Origin: Candidatus Woesearchaeota archaeon
GTDB lineage: Archaea > Nanobdellota > Nanobdellia > SCGC-AAA011-G17 > VGLX01
Direction: 5' to 3'
Length of the DNA: 14,831 nucleotides
NCBI GenBank assembly: GCA_016866645.1
Contig: VGLX01000010.1
Location: forward strand, 1-14,831
Below the pieces are notes generated by a model. It had not been told where the DNA came from and did no database searches. It saw only the letters and a list, made by a program, of their open reading frames with translations. Positions 1,633 to 12,732 of the stretch are shown here, in pieces; position 1 is the stretch's first letter, and the number at the start of each line of letters is the position of its first letter. The position numbers and the translations under genes are program-made.

Positions 1633-2460
1633 TTAGAACCTCCATGTCAGCCCTACGCCGACTGTGTGGTTTTTTGATTTTCCTTGGTTATAGTCATAGC
1701 CTACGTTTACTTTTACTTTTTCGCTGAGCTTGTAAGAGAGTCCTGCTCCGGCATTCACCGCTGTCTCGTCGCTTTTGCCCGATTCTTTCCCAACTCCGAC
1801 GTAAGCTTTTCCGCTTAGTTTCTTGTTGAACTCATGATTCCCTGATACGTAACCCATGGTTGTGTTAGTATCCTTAATAGATTCTCTCCAGTGGGTCCCT
1901 TTGACGTCTATCCAGTCCTTGTCGCCAAGGTAGTATCTTAACCCTAGGTTTGTTGAGTAGTCTTTGTCTCCGTTGGTTAATGCTGAGCCTTTAACATCAC
2001 CTATTATCGTTACTGGTTTTTTTATTATGTATTCTCCGTTTACTCCTAGTCCAAATGAAGCGACGTTTTTGTTCCCAAATTCTCTTATTGGGTCGACATC
2101 GTCTTTGACTTCTAAACGTCCGGATAAGTATAAGTCCTCGCTCATCTTCTTCCCTACTTCGAGTTTGATAGTTTCGTCGTTTCCTCTTGCTTTTTTTCCA
2201 TCTATCTTTCCGAAGTGGTCTGCGTGGCTTCCTTGGATGTTTATGTTGAAATCGTTCTTTTTCATGTTTAAGTCTATTATTTCTTTTATAGAAGTCACGT
2301 TAGAATCTGGCCCCTGCCTGGATGTAACTTCGACTTGTGCTCCAACGGATTCGAATTCTATAAACTTCTTGTCTTCTGCCCTCGCGAGCATAGAGTATCC
2401 GAAGATTGTTGCAACTGCTGTTAAGGTTGCTATTCCTGTTTTTATCTTGTTGAGTTTCAT
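1633..2460 (-). CDS. Secreted beta-strand-rich protein with outer-membrane beta-barrel-like signature (function unknown)
   Basis: 275 aa. The signal peptide MKLNKIKTGIATLTAVATIFGYSMLARA|EDKK has an AxA cleavage motif. About 13 short amphipathic alternating segments follow, e.g. ASFGLGVNGEYII, YSTNLGLRYYLG, KAYVGVGKES, AGAGLSYKLS, VKVNVGYDYN. The C-terminus HTVGVGLTWRF ends in Phe, like the bacterial OMP beta-signal. Its stop codon is 1 nt from the glycosyltransferase start. Confidence 0.6.
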   Translation of the reverse strand: MKLNKIKTGIATLTAVATIFGYSMLARAEDKKFIEFESVGAQVEVTSRQGPDSNVTSIKEIIDLNMKKNDFNINIQGSHADHFGKIDGKKARGNDETIKLEVGKKMSEDLYLSGRLEVKDDVDPIREFGNKNVASFGLGVNGEYIIKKPVTIIGDVKGSALTNGDKDYSTNLGLRYYLGDKDWIDVKGTHWRESIKDTNTTMGYVSGNHEFNKKLSGKAYVGVGKESGKSDETAVNAGAGLSYKLSEKVKVNVGYDYNQGKSKNHTVGVGLTWRF

Positions 2461-4455: not shown

Positions 4456-6336
4456 TTAACCAAACATGTTGAAGAGGCCTTTGCCTTTGCCGTCGTCTTT
4501 CTTCCTTTCTTCGTATCTTTTAGCGCGGTAAGGCTCTGAAGCGTAATAATGCTTGACTTCCCTCTCTTTCTCCTCAGTCTCTCTGACGCTCCTAAGCATC
4601 CTTGACCTGAAGTCCTCTATGCTTTCTTCTGTAGAAGAGAATGTGGATTTTCTTGGGCTGTTCTCCTTTAATGCTCTAAGCTCTTTAAGCATGGTCTCAC
4701 CTTCCCTCTTATTCTTGCACATCGCTACTTCAGCGTTCCTTAAATGCTCTTTCTTAAAAATAGTCAAGTAAATCAGGGTGGTTATTATGAGCGCTAATAA
4801 TGCTGAGTATATTATATTCAAAGAAGTTTTGTTCTTGCCTAGGACGATTATGTTATCAAACTGGTTAGGCATCACCGCGTTGCCGGTGACTGCTATCATA
4901 TACTCCCCGGCAGGTGCTTCTTGAGTAAGATCCACTACTAACACTGCCCCCGGTTTCAGTGAAACTTCTTTCTTTAGCGTGAACTCTCCATTGTTAAGGC
5001 TTACATCTACAGCTTCGTTATAATCAACATTGCCCGTGTTTAATATGTATAAGTTCTGACCTTCAAGCTGCACATCAACAGACTTGACTTTTTCTACTAT
5101 GAATTCCTGCCCAGTTGTCAAATCTGCGTAACTCGCCTTGAGCTTCCATGATCCTGGAATAGAATATTCTGGAAGAGGGATTATTATCTTGCCCTCAGAC
5201 TCGACGGACCCCAAGTATATCGACCTGCCGTTAGCATCTATCAGCTCTATTCTTAACTGGTCTATTATCTCATCACCTGCTTGGTCATACACATACGCAG
5301 CAGCTTCTAACACGTCTTTCGGCTTAAGCTCTGGTTGGAATACGTTAATCTTAATCTTAGTCGGTACTGCTTCGATGTTTATGCTCCTTTGAGTGCTTCC
5401 TTGGTTTCCGCTTTGGTCTTCATTGAAAAAGAACCTCAAAACATGAGTCCCTGTCTCAATATCTGCAGGTATCCTTAATTCGTATAAGAACTTACCGTCC
5501 CTTATCATAGCAGTGTAAGCCTCAGTGCCTAGCTTAATCTGCAGGACACCTTCTTTCATAGGCTCTCCAGATAATGTGTTGACTTCCCCGAGTATCTGTA
5601 ACAAGTCTCCTGGCAGGATTTTAGACTGCAGCGGCTCTACGAACACGTGCACTTGGTCTACGATGCTGAACATGGCAACATTTTCGAAAAGCTTCTTATT
5701 TCCGAAAACGTCAGTTACTAAAACGTCAACTGTGTAGTCTCCAGGGATGTTCCCCATGACAGTGTAGTAATACTTCAACTTGCCCTGGCTTACTGCTACG
5801 TCTTTGGCATAGTAAGTCTTTTCATCAGTCTTGAAATAGACCGTTGCTAGACCGTTTATCTGGGCACCAGTTTCTTTCATGCTCGTAAGATAACCGTAAA
5901 GAGTCAAAGTGTTTCCTAACTGGAGCTGTAAAGGATTTACCTGGAAGTCACCGTATGCCTTAAGCTCATCAGTTACTATAAACCTGTTAGAAAAGACCTC
6001 ATCAACTATCACGCCATTCGAGACTAATGAAGCTTTTACTACGCAGTTGCCCTCAGCAGTCGAAGGGATGATAGCATCGTCTATAACGATTGGTTTAGCA
6101 GTTTTTGGGCTTAAGCTTATCTCCTTGGTAAAAATGTCAAAGCTTACCTTATCACATATCAGCCTGAACCTTAATATGCCGTCTTCTACTGTGACATCTT
6201 CCACTATCTTAGAGTCTATCAGCAAAGGCTCGCCTTTATTATAATATTTTCCAAATGTGTTTAGGTCTATCTTTGCAAGAACAGCCGGCATCAATAGCAC
6301 AGCTAATACTAGTAACAGCATTATCCTCCTTTTCAT
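4456..6336 (-). CDS. Large type-I surface protein with repeated beta-sandwich-like modules, C-terminal TM anchor and ~100-aa charged cytoplasmic tail
   Basis: I chose the start at 6336 (MKRRIMLLLVLAVLLMPAVLAK, a signal peptide) because a TATA-like box lies 24 nt upstream. Short motifs resembling those of Ig/CARDB-like domains recur: IPGDYTVDVLV, IPGSWKLKASY, APAGEYMIAVTG. The C-terminal TM is SLNIIYSALLALIITTLIYLTIF, followed by a K/E/R-rich tail. Confidence 0.75.
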   Translation of the reverse strand: MKRRIMLLLVLAVLLMPAVLAKIDLNTFGKYYNKGEPLLIDSKIVEDVTVEDGILRFRLICDKVSFDIFTKEISLSPKTAKPIVIDDAIIPSTAEGNCVVKASLVSNGVIVDEVFSNRFIVTDELKAYGDFQVNPLQLQLGNTLTLYGYLTSMKETGAQINGLATVYFKTDEKTYYAKDVAVSQGKLKYYYTVMGNIPGDYTVDVLVTDVFGNKKLFENVAMFSIVDQVHVFVEPLQSKILPGDLLQILGEVNTLSGEPMKEGVLQIKLGTEAYTAMIRDGKFLYELRIPADIETGTHVLRFFFNEDQSGNQGSTQRSINIEAVPTKIKINVFQPELKPKDVLEAAAYVYDQAGDEIIDQLRIELIDANGRSIYLGSVESEGKIIIPLPEYSIPGSWKLKASYADLTTGQEFIVEKVKSVDVQLEGQNLYILNTGNVDYNEAVDVSLNNGEFTLKKEVSLKPGAVLVVDLTQEAPAGEYMIAVTGNAVMPNQFDNIIVLGKNKTSLNIIYSALLALIITTLIYLTIFKKEHLRNAEVAMCKNKREGETMLKELRALKENSPRKSTFSSTEESIEDFRSRMLRSVRETEEKEREVKHYYASEPYRAKRYEERKKDDGKGKGLFNMFG

Positions 6337-6360
6337 TACTATAGTATAGTACATATTAAG

Positions 6361-6414: not shown

Positions 6415-7236
6415 TTATCTTGATTTCAACATCAGCTGGTTAGCCAGCCAAGCCGGTATAGGCTGAATGGCAGTTATCCCACGATAGCTATCAAAAGAGT
6501 ACCTTTCTTTCCATTCGATGCTCAAAAGCTTCTTCTTAAACCATCTACGCTTGGTCTCATAAACAGGGTAGTATTGGCCTGCGTCGTACAGCTTGTTGTT
6601 GAAGCTGAACATCGTGAAAGGTATGCCATCCCTCTTAGCTACCACCTTATTCGTTAAAGTGTCCCTTATCTTATTATCAGTAGCCCCATCATACAGGTTG
6701 CTGTCATGTGAGCACAAAGAGTACACCCATTCCTTCCGCTCAGCGACTGGTTTGTCTTCAAGCGTTTTCATAACCTGCTTATAACTGCCAGCGTCATAAA
6801 TCTCCCCGTTATGTGAGCATAATGCCTTAACCCACCCGTCCCTCTCAGCTATTACTTTACCATTGTCTGTTCGGTAGATCTTTTTCAGTCCACCGTCATA
6901 CATCACGCCGTCATGGACGCATAAAGAGCTTACCATATGCCCCCTCTTGGCTATTTGCTTGTTGTTCAAGGTGTCTATTACCTGGTTGTAATCCCCTGTG
7001 TCGAACAATAAGTTGTCATACAAACAGAACGCGTTGATATAATTCGCCCTCCTAGCTACGGTTACAGGCTTATCCATGTCAGGCATCCAGACCATGATGT
7101 CACTTATCCATCCTCCGTGCTCGACGTAACATAAAGCGATGGCTAGGCAAGTGGGCAAGTAAGGTTCTGAGTTGCTGAGCTCTTCGATCTTCTCGTCAAG
7201 CTCCTTCCCTGGCAGGAAGGTTTTAGGAAGTTTCAT
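6415..7236 (-). CDS. Tagged repeat protein D: N-terminal MKLPKTFLPGKELDEKIEEL peptide plus five ~35-aa repeats; paralogue of 7239-8021
   Basis: The track start at 7242 is TTG. The ATG at 7236 gives MKLPK..., which matches the three upstream genes, and lies 2 nt after the upstream TGA. The repeat core is xVAERxxWVxALCSHxGxLYDAGxYxxVxxTLxxK. The C-terminal ITAIQPIPAWLANQL resembles VTALEMIPVSLVKNL of the paralogue. Confidence 0.8.
   Translation of the reverse strand: MKLPKTFLPGKELDEKIEELSNSEPYLPTCLAIALCYVEHGGWISDIMVWMPDMDKPVTVARRANYINAFCLYDNLLFDTGDYNQVIDTLNNKQIAKRGHMVSSLCVHDGVMYDGGLKKIYRTDNGKVIAERDGWVKALCSHNGEIYDAGSYKQVMKTLEDKPVAERKEWVYSLCSHDSNLYDGATDNKIRDTLTNKVVAKRDGIPFTMFSFNNKLYDAGQYYPVYETKRRWFKKKLLSIEWKERYSFDSYRGITAIQPIPAWLANQLMLKSR
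6547..7068 (-). repeat. Five tandem intragenic ~35-aa repeats (protein level) in gene D
   Basis: The conserved Cys/Phe sits at residues 71, 106, 140, 175 and 210. The (Y/F)D(x)G motif sits at 78, 113, 147, 182 and 217. The period is therefore 34-35 residues. Confidence 0.7.
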
Positions 7237-7238
7237 TA

Positions 7239-8021
7239 TCAACTCTTTTTTCTGAAATTGACCAAGTTTTTGACAAGGCTTACAGGTATCATCTCTAATG
7301 CGGTTACTGTCGAGTATCCGAAATCAAGCAATAGCTTGTCGCTGAAAACGTCTGTCACCATGCCGCTGGTCCCGCCTTCTAACAAAGTCCCTCTGAACGA
7401 GCATAAGGCGTAGATTATATGCGCCCTTTCAGCCACTGTCTCGTTAGTGTAAGTGTTTTTTACGCCCATATAATGCCCTGCGTCGTAAAGGCTGCCTTGG
7501 TGGGAGCATAATGCCCTTATCGTGTCGTCTCTTTTTGCGACAAATTTGTTTTTCATAGTTGAGTAGACGCATTGTTCTGTGCCAGCGTCGTAAAGCTCGC
7601 CGTTATGGGTCCTTAAGGCGAAGACACAGCCTAGCCTCTCTTTCAGCTTTGAGTCTCCTGAGTATATGGTCCCCAGGTTGGAATATACTAGTTCGCCGTT
7701 ATAATGGCATAACGAATAGGCTGCAGATAATTGTGTCAGCAGCTCATCATCTGTTAATGCATTGCTTACTCTGGTGTAGGCTCCGCAATCGTATAGTTGG
7801 CTGTCATGATAACAGAAGTCTATCACCATGTATTTTCTCTCGTTGACAAGCTCAGGCCTGATCATCGAAGGCTCCCAGACGTATATCTTCCCCCTGTTAA
7901 CTGCTGTGCTGTCCTCTACTGCTATCGCTAATCCTTGCTCGTTGAAGTCAGGTGTTGAGAGAAGAACATCAACTTTGCCTTCCAAGTCTTTATCCGGCAT
8001 GAAGCTGTCTGGAAGTTTCAT
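7239..8021 (-). CDS. Tagged repeat protein C: N-terminal MKLPDSFMPDKDLEGKVDVLL peptide plus ~35-aa repeats; paralogue of 6415-7236
   Basis: 260 aa. Repeats include FCYHDSQLYDCGAY, SLCHYNGELVYS, ALRTHNGELYDAG, ALCSHQGSLYDAG and ALCSFRGTLLEGG. It has the same domain order as gene D. Confidence 0.8.
   Translation of the reverse strand: MKLPDSFMPDKDLEGKVDVLLSTPDFNEQGLAIAVEDSTAVNRGKIYVWEPSMIRPELVNERKYMVIDFCYHDSQLYDCGAYTRVSNALTDDELLTQLSAAYSLCHYNGELVYSNLGTIYSGDSKLKERLGCVFALRTHNGELYDAGTEQCVYSTMKNKFVAKRDDTIRALCSHQGSLYDAGHYMGVKNTYTNETVAERAHIIYALCSFRGTLLEGGTSGMVTDVFSDKLLLDFGYSTVTALEMIPVSLVKNLVNFRKKS
7335..7853 (-). repeat. Five tandem intragenic ~35-aa repeats (protein level) in gene C
   Basis: The Cys/Arg position falls at residues 70, 105, 137, 172 and 207. 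The YD/YS/LE position falls at 77, 112, 144, 179 and 214. Confidence 0.65.
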
Positions 8022-8044
8022 CGCTAATGATACTCGTCAGAAGC

Positions 8045-8056
8045 TTAAATAATTTT
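8045..8056 (-). promoter_or_regulatory. Possible internal promoter AAAATTATTTAA (minus strand) for genes C-D
   Basis: Located in the 35-nt spacer between genes B and C, 23 nt upstream of the ATG at 8021. Confidence 0.4.
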
Positions 8057-8506
8057 CTAAACAGTAACAATAAACACTCGATCGAATAATGGCAAGTATT
8101 CCAATTTCTTTTTCAGAGATTCGGTAGTCTCGTGGTCGATATAAACTATCTGTATTTTACTTAAAAAAATAGCCTTGTCCAATAGTTCAACAACATCTTT
8201 TCTTCCAAACTCTTTAGTATGATAATCATATGTTTCATAATCTAGTTCCGACTTTGAATCGGTTATTACATTCTTAATCATGCGTTTTACTTCTTCATAC
8301 TTGCTTTCTTTATGCTGGTCTGATATCCAGAATATCTTTATATGCCCTCTTTTCATGGTATCCAAGTTACATCTCAATTGATGATAAATAATATTATGAA
8401 GGAAAACGTCTTGAAAACTGTCTTTAGCCTCAGTTTTTTCTTCTGAAAGCATACCAATTTTATCGTCTAAGCATTTTTCTGGCACAAATATGTCAGGTAT
8501 TTTCAT
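8057..8506 (-). CDS. Tagged protein B (150 aa): N-terminal MKIPDIFVPEKCLDDKIGML peptide plus unknown alpha/beta-looking body; low-GC cassette
   Basis: I prefer the ATG at 8506 over the track start at 8590. It restores the shared N-terminal peptide, has a GAGG 5 nt upstream, and removes an 74-nt out-of-frame overlap with gene A. Confidence 0.75.
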   Translation of the reverse strand: MKIPDIFVPEKCLDDKIGMLSEEKTEAKDSFQDVFLHNIIYHQLRCNLDTMKRGHIKIFWISDQHKESKYEEVKRMIKNVITDSKSELDYETYDYHTKEFGRKDVVELLDKAIFLSKIQIVYIDHETTESLKKKLEYLPLFDRVFIVTV

Positions 8507-8516
8507 AATGTCCTCT

Positions 8517-9209
8517 TCATCTGTCGAACAAAAGTAGGGTGGCGCTGCTGCAGAAGTAGAAGTTGCCGCTGATGTCTGAGCGATAGGCATCGTTACCTAG
8601 TGAGAGCTCAAACAGCTCGTCTTGGCTTGTGTTGCTCCTTAAATAAACGCCCATCATTCTTTTTCTGCCGTTACCATTAAATACAAAATCCACATATTCT
8701 GCTAACTTGTCCTTATCATTATTCATCGCTGCGAGCCAGAACTTATGGTTCTCGGCCTCTTTTCTTGTAAGCCTTTGGTTGTATTTGTCTTTTGTTATGT
8801 CAAGCTCTATGCCTTGCTCAGCATCGTAATTGATTGGTATGAAATCTTCGTCGAATCCTTGTTGGATGTTTTCCAATGTAGAAGACCTTTGAACTATCTT
8901 GAATTTGGCGCTTTTTGCCTTGTAGGCTATGCCTGTGACTGAGTCTATCTGGGTATTGAACAATGTTGAGTTCTTACCGTGAAGTTCATAATCAATAATT
9001 CTTGCTGTTATGTTATCAAAGAATGTGAAAGGCTTCTGTCCTTGTTCTTTTAGGTACGCGATGCATCCCGCAAATGTAAGGTCATGTATAAATTTGATAT
9101 TTTCCTTTAACATAAAGTTTGTGAGTGGTATCGTTTTTTCTTGCTCTAGTAATCCTCTTATATTAACTTCTAAACTTCTCTCCGGAAGGAATATGTTTGG
9201 TACCTTCAT
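8517..9209 (-). CDS. Tagged protein A (230 aa): N-terminal MKVPNIFLPERSLEVNIRGLL peptide plus unknown body
   Basis: The start lies 1 nt after the TAA stop of the vWA gene (TAAGATG). I recognise no family motif in the body. Confidence 0.8.
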   Translation of the reverse strand: MKVPNIFLPERSLEVNIRGLLEQEKTIPLTNFMLKENIKFIHDLTFAGCIAYLKEQGQKPFTFFDNITARIIDYELHGKNSTLFNTQIDSVTGIAYKAKSAKFKIVQRSSTLENIQQGFDEDFIPINYDAEQGIELDITKDKYNQRLTRKEAENHKFWLAAMNNDKDKLAEYVDFVFNGNGRKRMMGVYLRSNTSQDELFELSLGNDAYRSDISGNFYFCSSATLLLFDR

Positions 9210-9210
9210 C

Positions 9211-11100
9211 TTACAGCCGTTCTTCTCTGTCTCTTTCTTTGCCTTCGTAAACCTCTTTGGCCTTGCCTATGACCAGGTCGAAGAGGTCGTCTTGAGAATT
9301 CACGTAGAATACTTCGCAGCCTATGTCTTCTAGTTTCTTGACGTAGTCTTTGTATCCTGAGCCTATGCAGAATATCGCTCCTCGGTTCTTCTCGTTCAGG
9401 TCCATGACTGCTTTCAAGTAGGGGAATGCTGAGTCGAAGTTGTGGAATCCTGTGTCTGTTATTAGCAAGAACTGTTTCGGCTCTGAAGGGTTCTTGACCC
9501 ATTCGAGCATGTCCTCTTGTGGGAGTACTGTGCCTCCACCCTTGTAGGTCAGTATGACCTCATCTATAGCGTCTATGTCTTCTGTCTCGTCTAGAGTGGT
9601 TGTGTCTCTTCCTTTGGTGCTCTGGTCCTCTCCTGAGAAGTTCTTCACAGCCACTTTTACTCCTACGTTCTTCGCAGAATGCGCAGCTGCCATGGCTGCT
9701 AGGACTGCCGGAGCTATCGACTGGTTAGGATTAGTCATGCTTCCTGATGAGTCTAGGATTATGTAGAGGTCTGGCGGCCTGTCGCCTTCCTTGAATCCGA
9801 AAGTCTCCCTGTATCTCCATTTTGACGTCGTGACTCCAGGCACTGCCCTTCCTGCTGTTTGTAACGTGTACTGCAGGTCTAAGCTTTGCGGCGGGTCGCT
9901 AGGGTTCCATCTCTTCGGAGTGAACGGGTGCGCTTTGCCGGCGACTGTGTGCATCGGCCTGAACTTGACAGAGTAGTTCTCTGCTAAGTCACGGTATAAC
10001 CACTTGTTAGCTTTCTCTTCAGAGTCGAGTATTCCTGAGCCTACCATAAGCTCTTTGTATTCTTGGATTATGTTCTTGTTATCCTTACCTAATTTATTAG
10101 CTAGGCCTTTGACTTTCTCTTCTATCTCTTTCTCTAGCTGTTTCATCTTCTTCTCTAAGTCTTTCTTGTCCTTGTCTTGGCCTTGGCCGTCTTTCTTGTC
10201 ATCTTTCTTTGAGGACTTGCCTTTCTTGCCTTTCATGCCCTGCAATTGTTTTAGCATCTGCTTGAGCCTCTTAGCGTCTCCGCTGGATTCGCTTTCGAAT
10301 ATCTGCAGGTCTTTTCCTCCTTTTCCGTCTTCTTTTACGAAAGGCGCGATTATCTGGGTGAACCTGTATACCCGTTTCTCCCAGTTCCTGCAATCATACA
10401 TGTTGTCTTTGACCAATGAGTGTATCCTTTCAGCTGCTCGTTCCTGGTCTTCGCTGAACTTCTTCTTGTCGACCCATCTTCCATCCAGGTTCCAGAGCTT
10501 CTCGTAGACCCTCATGTAGACGTCCCAGCTCTTCCTCGGCGCTTTTTTCATCTCAGGGTCTGATTCTCTTCTCTGTTTGAAACGGTCGTATAAGAAGCAT
10601 ATCTTGTCCTTGTTGTCAGGCATGCCTTTCTCGTCCCCGTGCTCGACTATGTAGTTGTTGTCTACTATGTCTTCGAATATGTTTGAAAGGTTAGCGCCTA
10701 ATTCTTGGGCTTGGAAGCCGTCGGCTATGCCCTGTGATTTCAAAGCTTTGGCTGAGTTGTGAGTGAGAACGAGCTTTGTTAGCAGGTCCGTTGATATCAT
10801 CGCGTAATGGCCTACTCCGTGGAGCTCTAGTATCTCAACTGTGTCTTCCAATTCTTTCTGGTCTTTTATCATCAGGTGCTTCATCACGTGAGGCAGGCTT
10901 ACGTAAGTCTTCTTGTCGAAGTATGTCAAGAATTCCGGGGATGACTGCGGGTCTTTCAAAAGCTGCTTGGCCTCTTCAGTAACCGCCGGATCGTTATCCA
11001 GGTTGTTCTCAGTGGCCACTTTAGGCTTCGGAAGCATTGCGTAGAACCAGAACTTCCTGACTTTCTCCCAGATTTCCTGCTCTTTCTCTTCACTTATCAT
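9211..11100 (-). CDS. 629-aa protein with C-terminal von Willebrand factor A (vWA) domain with complete MIDAS; long N-terminal region of unknown fold
   Basis: LYIILDSSGSM carries the DxSxS motif, with DSSGS encoded at 9739-9753. The downstream GGGT and LLITDTG motifs supply the Thr and Asp MIDAS ligands. The vWA domain covers about residues 444-612 (9265-9771). Residues 280-345 form a K/D/E/G-rich low-complexity, coiled-coil-like linker (10066-10263). Confidence 0.9.
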   Translation of the reverse strand: MISEEKEQEIWEKVRKFWFYAMLPKPKVATENNLDNDPAVTEEAKQLLKDPQSSPEFLTYFDKKTYVSLPHVMKHLMIKDQKELEDTVEILELHGVGHYAMISTDLLTKLVLTHNSAKALKSQGIADGFQAQELGANLSNIFEDIVDNNYIVEHGDEKGMPDNKDKICFLYDRFKQRRESDPEMKKAPRKSWDVYMRVYEKLWNLDGRWVDKKKFSEDQERAAERIHSLVKDNMYDCRNWEKRVYRFTQIIAPFVKEDGKGGKDLQIFESESSGDAKRLKQMLKQLQGMKGKKGKSSKKDDKKDGQGQDKDKKDLEKKMKQLEKEIEEKVKGLANKLGKDNKNIIQEYKELMVGSGILDSEEKANKWLYRDLAENYSVKFRPMHTVAGKAHPFTPKRWNPSDPPQSLDLQYTLQTAGRAVPGVTTSKWRYRETFGFKEGDRPPDLYIILDSSGSMTNPNQSIAPAVLAAMAAAHSAKNVGVKVAVKNFSGEDQSTKGRDTTTLDETEDIDAIDEVILTYKGGGTVLPQEDMLEWVKNPSEPKQFLLITDTGFHNFDSAFPYLKAVMDLNEKNRGAIFCIGSGYKDYVKKLEDIGCEVFYVNSQDDLFDLVIGKAKEVYEGKERDREERL

Positions 11101-11110
11101 TTTTTTTATG

Positions 11111-11131
11111 AAAAAAAAAATTTGAAAAAAA
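11111..11131 (-). terminator. Oligo-T tracts (T7-CAAA-T10 on the coding strand) between the MoxR and vWA genes; possible attenuating archaeal-type terminator
   Basis: The sense-strand spacer reads TAA-TCCTC-TTTTTTT-CAAA-TTTTTTTTTT-CAT-AAAAAAA-ATG. Oligo-dT runs are the known archaeal intrinsic termination signal. Function at this position is an inference. Confidence 0.3.
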
Positions 11132-11136
11132 GAGGA

Positions 11137-12567
11137 TTATTTCTTCCTCTTTATCTTGTACTTCGTTGCTACGTAGTGGTGTATCTTCTGCAGCCAGCAG
11201 GCTAATGAGTACTTTATAGGGTCGTCGTGGCCTGATATTTCTTGTAAGCCGTGGACTTCTACTTTGTTGACGAAGTCTTCTGCTGGCATCTCGCCTTTCT
11301 CTACTTTCTCGAAGGCGTTGACTATAGCTCCGTAGTTCTCGAATATGCCGTCTTTGGCTATGGCCCTTTTGAACCCTTCTTCTGATGTCTTCATTATCAG
11401 TCCTATAAGGCCGAGCCTGTCGTTGACTATTCCTGGGCTTATCGCTTGTGCCGTCGCTGTCGGCTCTAGCTTATGGAATGTGGTGTAAGGGACTATTGTC
11501 TTGACTGTTTCTGTCGTGACCTTGTCCTCCCCTAGGAACCATGCTAGTGCTCTGCAGTAATCGTAAGTCGCTAATACGCTTCTTACTGACAGTTCGTTCT
11601 TCGTGAGCCTACAGGCCATAGTGTCCATGTAGTATTTGCATTCTGCCGGTGACTTGCAAAGCGCGTCTGGCTGCTTGTATTCGCAGCTTCCTTTGTTCAT
11701 GAACGCTATTGCGCTTGGGTTGAACTCTTGAGACGATCCCCTCATGCAGAAGTTTATCTGTGACATTAGGTAGTGGATGTAGTTCCTGGCTTCTTTCTCG
11801 AATGGTATCGCGGCTATTTCTTTTCTTATCTTTTCCAGGTCTTCTTTTGAGAGCTTAAGCTCTGCTGCCAGGTCTAAGGCTTTGGTTAGTTCTCCTCTGT
11901 CGGCAATCTGCCATTGTGTCAGCTGGTCAGGTATCGGCACTTTGACTGCTGCTCCGAACCTGTCGACGAATGGCGGTGTCATGACGAAGTTTCCTGCGTC
12001 TTGGTAGTTGGCTGTCGCGAATATCGGCCCTTCTGTCATGTGGAATATGTAGTCCATGTATTTGACTATCCCCCTGTCTACTGCGTGGTATAGCATGTCT
12101 GACTTGTCCGCTGGCAGCCTGTTGACTTCGTCTATTATGTGGACTGGGCAGGTGCAGAAGTTTCTCCATCTGACTTCTTCCTCTCCGTCTTTGACTAGTT
12201 TTCCTGTGTGAAGCCTTGCTATCATTTTCTCTTCTGTCTGTTCAGGGTTTCCGTGGATTTCTGAGTTGAGAATATCTTCTATCGGGACGTTGTGTATGAA
12301 GTGCCCTACGTATTCCGCTACTGTTGTTTTTCCTGTCCCAGGAGCTCCTCTGTAGAGCAATGAGCCTCTTTTCATCAATGAGGTTAATGTTGTGAATAGA
12401 AGTACTGGTTCGTAGCATTTCTTCTCAGGCATTTTCATCGTTACCTTGCTGTTGGCGTCTATAGGGACTTCTGAGTAGTCGCCTACGATGATGTAAGATG
12501 ATCCCATGTAGAATCCTTTGTCTTGTATATAGCTCATGATGTTCTCTAGCTTTTCTTGGTGTTTCAT
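11137..12567 (-). CDS. MoxR-class AAA+ ATPase, atypically long (476 aa) with N- and C-terminal extensions and a Cys-rich insert
   Basis: Walker A is GAPGTGKT (12325-12348), Walker B is VHIIDEVNR, sensor-1 is IFATAN. It also has PPFVDRF and the lid/sensor-2 region ELSVRSVLATYDYCRALAWFLGEDKVTTETV, which matches the MoxR pattern (GxSxRa...A.A.l.Gr..V..eDv). Confidence 0.9.
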   Translation of the reverse strand: MKHQEKLENIMSYIQDKGFYMGSSYIIVGDYSEVPIDANSKVTMKMPEKKCYEPVLLFTTLTSLMKRGSLLYRGAPGTGKTTVAEYVGHFIHNVPIEDILNSEIHGNPEQTEEKMIARLHTGKLVKDGEEEVRWRNFCTCPVHIIDEVNRLPADKSDMLYHAVDRGIVKYMDYIFHMTEGPIFATANYQDAGNFVMTPPFVDRFGAAVKVPIPDQLTQWQIADRGELTKALDLAAELKLSKEDLEKIRKEIAAIPFEKEARNYIHYLMSQINFCMRGSSQEFNPSAIAFMNKGSCEYKQPDALCKSPAECKYYMDTMACRLTKNELSVRSVLATYDYCRALAWFLGEDKVTTETVKTIVPYTTFHKLEPTATAQAISPGIVNDRLGLIGLIMKTSEEGFKRAIAKDGIFENYGAIVNAFEKVEKGEMPAEDFVNKVEVHGLQEISGHDDPIKYSLACWLQKIHHYVATKYKIKRKK

Positions 12568-12656
12568 GGTTTGGTTTACCCTCCAATGTTTTGCTGGATA
12601 TATTATTCTTATATACAGAACCCCGTTTTTTCGTCTTAGTTTAGAATTTGGAGGGG

Positions 12657-12671
12657 TATATAAACCTTTTG
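12657..12671 (-). promoter_or_regulatory. BRE/TATA-like promoter core CAAAAGGTTTATATA (minus strand) upstream of the MoxR-vWA cluster
   Basis: This 15-mer is identical to the one at 3238-3252 and lies 89 nt upstream of the ATG at 12567. Other TATA-like runs (TATATAAG and AATAATATAT, rc of 12598-12615) lie closer to the ATG, so the TSS is unresolved. Confidence 0.45.
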
Positions 12672-12732
12672 ATTAATACTTACATTATAGTAGTAACATT
12701 AAGGGTTGGTTAGTTGCTGATATCATACTTGA

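Follow-up and report, generated by a model that had tools for sequence, protein, structure and literature searches.

MoxR-vWA pairs are widespread, few of them have known clients, and each of those few serves one enzyme. What does such a pair bind when the genes beside it encode several unrelated small proteins with a common N-terminal peptide? This question is raised by a stretch of 14,831 nucleotides (nt), the whole of which is called the window, from a metagenome-assembled genome of a Candidatus Woesearchaeota archaeon (DPANN; contig VGLX01000010.1). Six minus-strand genes (g1–g6) lie head to tail in the window, with spacers of 36, 1, 10, 35, and 2 nt, confirming the co-directional layout reported by the initial annotation, which had been made from the letters alone. 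The gene g1 encodes a MoxR-class AAA+ ATPase, g2 encodes an adaptor with a C-terminal vWA domain, and g3, g4, g5, and g6 encode small proteins that open with the same 21-residue peptide, hereafter the tag. The best explanation of the locus is a MoxR-vWA system of archaea (Woesearchaeota, DPANN) whose third layer is variable, and the tag may act as a docking handle for the vWA adaptor, a plausible assignment that is advanced tentatively.

A shared N-terminal tag on unrelated proteins

The proteins g3 (8517–9209, 230 residues), g4 (8057–8506, 149 residues), g5 (7239–8021, 260 residues), and g6 (6415–7236, 273 residues) all begin with MK[LIV]PxxF[IVL]P[ED]KxL[ED]xK[VI]xxLL (4/4), which is encoded on the minus strand at 9147–9209, 8444–8506, 7959–8021, and 7174–7236, respectively. 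The length of g4 is counted from an internal start (MKIPDIF). Its longest open reading frame (ORF) begins at 8590 and would overlap g3; the start is placed at 8506 because homologues such as P0162 begin at the tag. In the tag, an extended stretch containing Pro and Phe leads into a short amphipathic helix, in which a Leu-Asp/Glu pair is nearly invariant.

A hidden Markov model (HMM) built from nine tags was searched against 18,498 ORFs from 167 sources. Five contigs belong to the lineage of the window (the window, L001, L003, L168, and L169), and their ATPases are 71–77% identical where the gene is complete. The shared N-terminus of about 21 residues noticed by the initial annotation is real: g3–g6 are recovered at E = 3.5e-13 to 7e-12 (2.2e-12 for g3 and 3.5e-13 for g4), and everything outside the lineage has E > 3, a gap of more than ten orders of magnitude. 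The tag DNA of g3–g6 differs at many synonymous codon positions and the peptide is kept; because of these synonymous differences, the conservation is attributed to selection on the peptide and not to recent gene conversion.

The tag extends far beyond the window. A 30-position tag profile, compared with 1.84 billion proteins (cluster representatives) at a cut-off of E <= 1e-3, matches 117 cluster representatives, and in nearly all of them the match starts from residue 1. The matching proteins have 66–351 residues, except for a repetitive protein of 2,144 residues in which the match is internal. Pro4 and Phe7 are found in 112/112 sequences, Pro9 and Leu13 in 110/112, and Lys11 and the acidic residue (Asp/Glu) at position 14 in 105/112, and positions 22 onward are variable, without a conserved cleavage-site motif. 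After removal of the tag, the matches and g3–g6 fall into approximately 47 BLAST-unlinked groups, 22 of them with at least two members; g3, g4, and the g5/g6 pair belong to three different C-terminal groups. The GXGXG β-helix group (8 proteins) is the only one with a Pfam family. Other groups include membrane-hairpin proteins, a family ending in ...IPFP, and cluster 32, which also stands beside distant ATPase-vWA pairs, there with a different N-terminus. From this placement on many unrelated domains, the tag is therefore a modular N-terminal element. Conversely, homologous C-terminal families carry differing tags, at least three in the propellers and two in the cluster-32 domain. The C-terminal membrane hairpins of some tagged proteins (topology read from the sequences) would place the tag in the cytosol, where MoxR and vWA proteins act.

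Judged by these profiles, dozens of unrelated families of proteins in these archaea bear the tag, which appears to be undescribed, and the common handle proposed by the initial annotation both holds and generalizes. No description of the tag, or of MoxR in DPANN or Woesearchaeota with N-terminally conserved paralog arrays, was found in the literature searched. The tag gives a shared feature to more than 100 DPANN protein clusters, 93% of which have no Pfam family. In P0222 (351 residues), two tag copies are present, at residue 1 and at approximately residue 154 (IKLPKSFRPDKDMDKKTKDLL), which points either to two fused tagged genes or to an overlooked stop codon. A likeness between the tag and the N-termini of four L090 PQQ-type propellers (AFIPKNKK) was rejected, as it scores about -0.5 bits with the tag HMM, which is background.

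Behind the tag, g3–g6 are predicted to be unrelated small cytosolic proteins, among which g5 and g6 are mutually related propellers. No significant match to g3–g6 was obtained in the curated families of Pfam, NCBIfam, PADLOC, and PHROGs. Relatives of g3 are P0127 and an orthologue in L001 with 58% identity. The C-terminal part of g4 groups with P0148, P0162, P0201, and P0216, all of which are tag-initiated. The g5 and g6 proteins (FJZ53_00920 and FJZ53_00915 at NCBI) are 34% identical and carry repeats of approximately 40 residues, and their family has 45 members among 5.8 billion protein clusters, in Woesearchaeota and Nanoarchaeota only. The AlphaFold2 (AF2) model of g6, computed from the 45-sequence alignment, is all-β, with a predicted local distance difference test (pLDDT) score of 92.1 and a predicted template modeling (TM) score of 0.87. 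Foldseek returns 343 PDB matches to this model at E <= 1e-3; Kelch and WD40 propellers with six blades head the list, with TM scores of approximately 0.6 and E values down to 1e-10. The propellers of Fbw7, β-TrCP, Keap1, and KLHL20 are the top matches. On the basis of the model, g6 is a six-bladed β-propeller, and g5 is assigned the same fold by homology to g6. Residues 1–25 of g6 have pLDDT values of 48–75 and are not packed on the propeller, and residues 13–21 form a short helix; as modeled, the tag of g6 is a flexible N-terminal extension. The initial annotation had found no known family for genes 3–6. This stands for the curated libraries but not for the folds of g5 and g6; the structure searches gave g1 a MoxR fold and g6 a propeller, and the family libraries left g3 and g4 without a family.

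The MoxR ATPase and the vWA adaptor

The gene g1 (11137–12567, minus strand) encodes 476 residues with a C-terminal helical extension. The motifs quoted by the initial annotation are all present in the translations, namely GAPGTGKT, HIIDEVNR, FATAN, VDRF, and LSVRS...CRALAW in g1, and DSSGS, GGGT, and ITDTG of a complete MIDAS (adhesion site that depends on a metal ion) in g2. In Pfam, g1 matches AAA_5 (E = 8.3e-7, 29.5 bits against a cut-off of 22) and AAA_lid_2 (E = 2.1e-6), both past the curated cut-offs. It has the MoxR-class core, consisting of Walker A and Walker B, sensor 1, Arg finger, sensor 2, and the AAA lid. The conserved insert NPEQTEEKM...β-hairpin between Walker A and Walker B corresponds to the helix 2 insert of MoxR-type proteins. 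Walker A (Gly74–Thr81), Walker B (Asp146/Glu147), Asn187, Arg203, and Arg329 are invariant or nearly so in 24 homologues. The top PDB match of the g1 AF2 model (pLDDT 90.5) is the uncharacterized MoxR protein 2r44, with E = 4.7e-14, a TM score of 0.72 on the target, and 16% identity, followed by RavA and BchI. One JGI metagenome contig (L087) is 100% identical to the window across the ATPase match.

Among the NCBIfam equivalogs, none for CbbQ/NorQ/GvpN, RavA, CobS, or BchI/ChlI matches g1, and the best relevant match is BchD-ChlD with E = 0.026 and 13 bits against a cut-off of 500. The Pfam family bpMoxR (PF20030) does not match g1; a sub-threshold match (E = 0.008) is found for the L167 ATPase only. 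PADLOC gives only generic P-loop matches for g1 (TRIP13, 6e-4) and none for g2–g6. Because no curated equivalog matches, g1 is classed as a MoxR-class ATPase outside the characterized subfamilies, from which it is set apart both by the equivalog models and by its closest structure. The proposal that the pair is not a member of a characterized clade is upheld by the same results, the closest solved relative being 2r44.

The gene g2 (9211–11100, minus strand) encodes 629 residues, in which a linker rich in K and E joins a zincin-like domain at the N-terminus to a vWA domain at the C-terminus. The vWA domain (9313–9771, minus strand) matches Pfam VWA past the cut-off (E = 2.6e-5, residues 444–596), and the protein terminates approximately 30 residues beyond it. 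The MIDAS is complete, with DSSGS encoded at 9739–9753, and Asp450, Ser452, Ser454, Thr524, and Asp549 are invariant in a 26-sequence alignment. With these invariant MIDAS residues and the invariant or nearly invariant catalytic residues of the ATPase, the machine is intact.

In most of 93 homologues, the N-domain contains HExxH and then CP[YF]D. In the window lineage, HG[VTLI]GH replaces HExxH, so that the catalytic Glu becomes Gly, and the Cys is also lost. The g2 protein itself has HGVGH (residues 94–98, encoded at 10807–10821 on the minus strand), a degenerate zincin motif that lacks the catalytic Glu of the zincin metallopeptidases. Cleavage is unlikely in the window lineage because Glu is replaced by Gly in this motif. 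The top PDB match of the g2-family profile is the minimal metallopeptidase MJ1213, a weak match with E = 0.007. This match and the motif weakly suggest that the N-domain is zincin-like. The DUF2201 families (PF13203 and PF09967) and the VMAP families of Pfam match 0/26 g2-family members at E <= 0.01.

The HExxH...CP[YF]D signature is also seen in the vWA partners of Thor-, Hermod-, and other Asgard archaea, and HGxxH instead of HExxH occurs in the window lineage and in a few bacterial members. A conserved HExxH domain in archaeal vWA partners, Asgard included, was previously unremarked and is a further lead. In addition, the highest scores that the tag HMM reaches outside the tags, 6–9 bits over HMM positions 10–20, fall in the K/E-rich linker of g2 (approximately 10100–10170, residues ~310–335) and in the same region of L001, L003, L168, and L169. 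Although of interest if real, a pseudo-tag inside the adaptor that resembles the tag's helical half was rejected, as scores of 6–9 bits are most likely compositional.

Linkage of tagged genes to the ATPase-vWA pair

In approximately 113 loci retrieved from DPANN and Asgard archaea and from a few bacteria, a vWA homologue adjoins the ATPase gene. Each of the five window-lineage contigs has one to four tagged genes directly after the vWA gene, with spacers from a few nt to a few hundred nt, and g6 is the tagged gene most consistently kept beside it (L001, L003, L168, and L169). Meanwhile, all the readable contexts of the propeller family but one (L176) include the MoxR/vWA pair.

The most revealing arrangement is that of GCA_018221125.1, a distant Woesearchaeote, in which a ribbon-helix-helix (RHH) gene is followed by a MoxR-like AAA_5 ATPase gene, 10 propeller paralogs, a zincin-vWA gene, and a further 5 paralogs. 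The array occupies L167:2029–12478 and L170:1–4973, and two contig ends share the zincin-vWA gene between them; its N-domain is recognized by hhalign with 90% probability and its vWA part by the family HMM at 4.6e-10. All the propeller paralogs (15/15) start with M[TK]INKGKTNEELV..Y.AR.KARKEKP (the MTINKGKTNEELV tag). The ATPase is barely alignable to g1, and the locus is therefore regarded as an independent instance with a different tag. It is also the largest array seen, with tandem paralogs whose start and stop codons overlap.

Accessory paralogs between and/or after the pair are present in 27 of the 97 non-redundant ATPase+vWA loci, all of the Woesearchaeota type, and these paralogs have their own lineage-specific N-termini. 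In the largest accessory family (cluster 3; 48 sequences, 33 loci), conservation is highest in the N-terminal block PLvPvNPeGL[DE].iA..LL. This block aligns weakly, in the same register, with the helical half of the window tag, with an hhalign score that is reached by 0/100 column shuffles. Clusters 3 and 32 are probably homologous (hhalign 84%), and a basic C-terminal tail, ...S[RL]G[VI]R(A)x[KR]K, is conserved in both (for example L013:11409–12251, L008:2919–3665, L001:5118–5813, and P0143). The possibility that g3 is a distant member of accessory clusters 3, 26, and 32 was rejected, as hhalign finds the tag only.

Several further arrangements were observed. In L171:5801–13158, L174:1–7694, and L177:8680–14657, approximately 10–13 consecutive small genes are nearly all tag-initiated (variant MKLPKTFRTEKNLD), and the L171 array lies beside a PF09826 Beta_propel gene, as does the ATPase locus of L005. 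Elsewhere in this ATPase-vWA family the conserved neighbors differ. In some DPANN loci (L023, L027, L028, L033, L036, and similar), a classical-clade AAA+ ATPase is encoded upstream of the pair, and the downstream genes are those of a P-loop protein, a transglutaminase-like protein, and a TrmB-like regulator. In Asgard loci such as L050, the neighbors of the pair are SMC and a classical AAA+ protein.

Proposed mechanism and alternative explanations

If the tag is a docking handle, any tag-bearing protein could bind the adaptor g2. The target supplies the sixth metal ligand of a MIDAS in the form of an acidic residue, and further specificity comes from the vWA partner's N-domain (PMC9976466). 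Similarly, the MIDAS of Rea1 binds the N-terminal ubiquitin-like (UBL) domains of the β-propeller proteins Rsa4 and Ytm1 (PMC6624252). Most economically, the acidic residue at position 14 of the tag would complete the metal coordination of the g2 MIDAS, as in other MoxR/vWA systems and in Rea1. Alternatively, the extended N-terminal half of the tag may sit in the pseudo-peptidase cleft of the N-domain. The MoxR hexamer, using ATP, would then act on the protein so bound by loading, releasing, or remodeling it. Most of the C-terminal modules appear to be folds for binding and not enzymes (propellers, GXGXG β-helices, and membrane hairpins), and they could be clients or exchangeable receptors of the machine. 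Tagged proteins encoded elsewhere in the genome would use it in trans, and the Woesearchaeota lineages may have co-evolved differing handles with their own ATPase/adaptor pairs. Candidate roles are surface assembly together with the downstream gene g7, host interaction, or defense; for the last of these, PADLOC returns no informative match for g1–g6.

Several observations weigh against a handle dedicated to this pair. The contact between the tag and the MIDAS is an analogy with other systems, and the similarity between the window tag and the cluster-3 tag is weak (hhalign 11.7, P = 0.006). Most window-type tagged genes with a visible context do not adjoin the pair. In the tag arrays of L171/L172 (12 genes), L174 (at least 12), and L177 (approximately 10), no match to the ATPase or vWA families lies within 5–10 kb, and in L176, which belongs to the same genome as L001, two dispersed tagged genes likewise have no pair within 5–10 kb. 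Conversely, L005 and L015, the closest relatives outside the lineage (ATPase identity 46–50%), keep the pair and g7 and have no tagged gene. Accessory paralogs are absent from 70/97 ATPase+vWA loci (Asgard, other DPANN, and a few bacteria), which argues that the pair has a function independent of them. Between the vWA gene and g7 there are 0 to 4 tagged genes, depending on the locus. In L001, the g3 orthologue is upstream of the ATPase gene, on the far side of a tRNA synthetase gene; L001 has two more tagged genes, and L169 has one, that are upstream beyond unrelated genes. In view of the loci without tagged genes and of the 10–13-gene arrays without a nearby pair, "hard-wired", the term used in the initial annotation for the coupling of the four proteins to the pair, is too strong. 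Some lineages show a strong linkage of accessory genes with the pair, and others show none.

In an alternative explanation, the tag addresses another receptor, a scaffold, or a self-associating helix assembly, and the MoxR-vWA pair is a mere neighbor in one lineage, because variable genes tend to gather at one genomic spot. This explanation is possible but doubtful. It accounts for the arrays and dispersed tagged genes without a nearby ATPase or vWA gene, for the bare pairs of L005 and L015, and for the varying number and position of the tagged genes around the pair (L001 and L169). However, it leaves unexplained why a very distant MoxR-like/zincin-vWA pair is built around 15 propeller paralogs with their own tag, and why, in 27 related loci, paralogs with conserved N-termini are interleaved between the genes of the ATPase and the vWA protein; it also has to face the readable propeller-family contexts, which, L176 aside, include the pair. 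Another explanation, which is improbable, is that the vWA partner's zincin domain cleaves off the N-terminus, which would be a leader or propeptide, that MoxR governs access, and that this processing activates the accessory proteins; in the window lineage, the peptidase would have turned into a non-catalytic leader-binding domain. The HExxH and CP[YF]D motifs of most of the 93 vWA partners, including the partner of the 15 propellers, the top match to MJ1213, weak as it is, and the flexible N-terminal position of the tags are in line with such a leader. Inactive peptidase domains acting as peptide binders are, moreover, a known MoxR-vWA theme (PMC7159879). Nevertheless, Glu is changed to Gly in the very lineage whose tag is conserved best and spread most widely, so that cleavage suits the lineages with HExxH and fits that of the window poorly; the variable positions from 22 onward hold no conserved cleavage-site motif, and the peptidase call consists of the motif and the E = 0.007 match.

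The shared N-terminus could also be functionless, a by-product of duplication or gene conversion, a DNA or RNA element at gene starts, or a mark of mobile or viral origin. The tandem, close-packed genes would suit such a by-product, as would one related locus in which an unrelated 334-residue gene lies between the vWA gene and the tagged genes. This explanation is largely refuted and is very improbable, as the peptide is kept where synonymous sites differ, the C-terminal parts are unrelated (47 unlinked groups), and the tag is retained across contigs with 71–77% identical ATPases as well as in the distant arrays. A viral origin is further opposed by the viral collections, from which the pair is essentially absent. 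The commonest tag variant has no exact match in 2.9 million viral contigs (IMG/VR), where the ATPase has one weak relative. Three GenBank phage records contain weak, partial ATPase matches (22–26% identity, under half the length), the vWA protein has none, and PHROGs gives no significant match.

The docking-handle explanation can be extended to a DPANN-wide addressing scheme, in which lineage-specific N-terminal peptides of approximately 21 residues would route dozens of unrelated modules, mostly non-enzymatic, to a MoxR-vWA machine and the arrays would recognize host, virus, or surface targets. This extension is speculative and, as it stands, rather unlikely. If true, it would represent a prokaryotic counterpart of interchangeable-receptor systems such as Rea1-MIDAS/UBL and the F-box receptors, and the expanding arrays, with up to 15 paralogs, would serve host, virus, or surface recognition in episymbionts. 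The tag itself suggests that these reduced genomes invest in repertoires of binding modules that can expand, which bears on the interplay of episymbionts with their hosts and viruses. As the candidate partners are genome-encoded and marked by a peptide, the question of what a MoxR-vWA pair binds becomes testable, peptide against adaptor.

Leader region and flanking genes

The 165-nt leader 5' of g1 contains TATA-like boxes and a GGAGG, as read from the sequence. Within 12568–12697 (minus strand), the candidate archaeal promoter elements are AAAGGTTTATATA at approximately 12657–12669 and TATATAAG at approximately 12608–12615, and the candidate ribosome-binding site GGAGG is at 12579–12583, 12 nt 5' of the g1 ATG.

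The gene g7 (4456–6354, minus strand) lies 60 nt 3' of g6 on the same strand and encodes a predicted surface protein of 632 residues, composed of a signal peptide, Ig/MG2-like repeats, a C-terminal transmembrane helix, and a charged tail. A Pfam scan of g7 gives only sub-threshold matches (DUF4625, Big_13, and MG2). Homologues of g7 come after the pair or the tagged genes in L001, L005, L015, L168, and L169. Because it is co-directional, 60 nt downstream, and syntenic in other contigs (four others), g7 probably belongs to the g1–g6 transcription unit; the six-gene unit of the initial annotation is correct in its layout and probably one gene too short.

Further downstream, a 275-residue protein with a signal-peptide-like N-terminus and a C-terminal ...TWRF is encoded at 1633–2460 (minus strand), with a counterpart at L168:6986–7813. 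It matches Pfam OMP_b-brl (E = 1.2e-6, 29.3 bits against a cut-off of 28.7), a bacterial-type outer-membrane β-barrel that is unexpected in an archaeon. The OMP_b-brl gene is conserved and syntenic, beside a GT2 glycosyltransferase gene, in a related Nanoarchaeota contig. In L003, which has no g7, a GvpA-type gas-vesicle gene (PF00741; L003:16567–16791) lies 1.3 kb 3' of the tagged genes, which may be coincidental. GvpN is a MoxR-class ATPase.

Comparison with known systems

As in CbbQ-CbbO, NorQ-NorD, RavA-ViaA, and CoxD-CoxE, the MoxR ATPase gene of the window adjoins the gene of a partner composed of an N-domain, a linker, and a C-terminal vWA domain with MIDAS. By analogy with these pairs, the MIDAS is expected to grip an acidic residue of the target, which the ATPase would remodel (PMC9976466). 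Unlike the characterized pairs, each with one dedicated enzyme client, the system of the window is accompanied by variable unrelated small proteins with a common peptide; it also differs from them in having no NCBIfam equivalog match and a zincin-like N-domain in the partner.

DUF2201-type proteins, with a putative metallopeptidase N-domain and a vWA-like domain, often stand beside MoxR ATPases in bacteria. They have the same architecture of an HExxH N-domain and vWA; the window family, however, is archaeal, with HGVGH in g2, and matches neither PF13203 nor PF09967.

The logic of a MoxR-related AAA+ motor and a MIDAS that grips the handle of a β-propeller protein through an acidic residue is also that of Rea1/Midasin with Rsa4 and Ytm1 (PMC6624252). 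In Rea1, however, the handle is a folded UBL domain, and the motor and MIDAS are on one polypeptide, whereas the handle here would be a 21-residue peptide; the analogy is one of logic and makes no claim of homology. Foldseek also matches g6 to WDR12 (human Ytm1), which is only one of many generic WD40 propellers so matched. By analogy only, an N-terminal handle that is short and constant, a variable β-propeller or other binding module, and expanded paralogs likewise recall the F-box and BTB-Kelch/WD40 receptors, which have no sequence relation to the window proteins; the locus contains no ubiquitin-like machinery.

The closest comparison is with the MoxR-vWA ternary conflict systems described by Kaur, Burroughs, Iyer, and Aravind in 2020, which include VMAP, iSTAND, FtsH, and β-propeller types (PMC7159879). 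Both combine a MoxR-vWA core with variable components that include β-propellers. Furthermore, inactive peptidase domains have been proposed as peptide binders in those systems, and short shared N-terminal modules have been suggested to couple effectors to the core. Those systems are bacterial and enriched in multicellular bacteria, whereas the system of the window is archaeal. No VMAP or STAND family of Pfam matches g1–g6 at E <= 1, and the window contains no gene for VMAP, an inactive STAND NTPase, or a double FtsH AAA+ protein. In the β-propeller type, the propeller is fused C-terminally to vWA and the P-loop is often GXXXTAKS; here, g2 has no fused propeller, the propellers are separate proteins, and the P-loop is GAPGTGKT. 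The locus therefore resembles the ternary systems in its logic and lacks their defining features; its third layer consists of separate proteins that only a short peptide joins.

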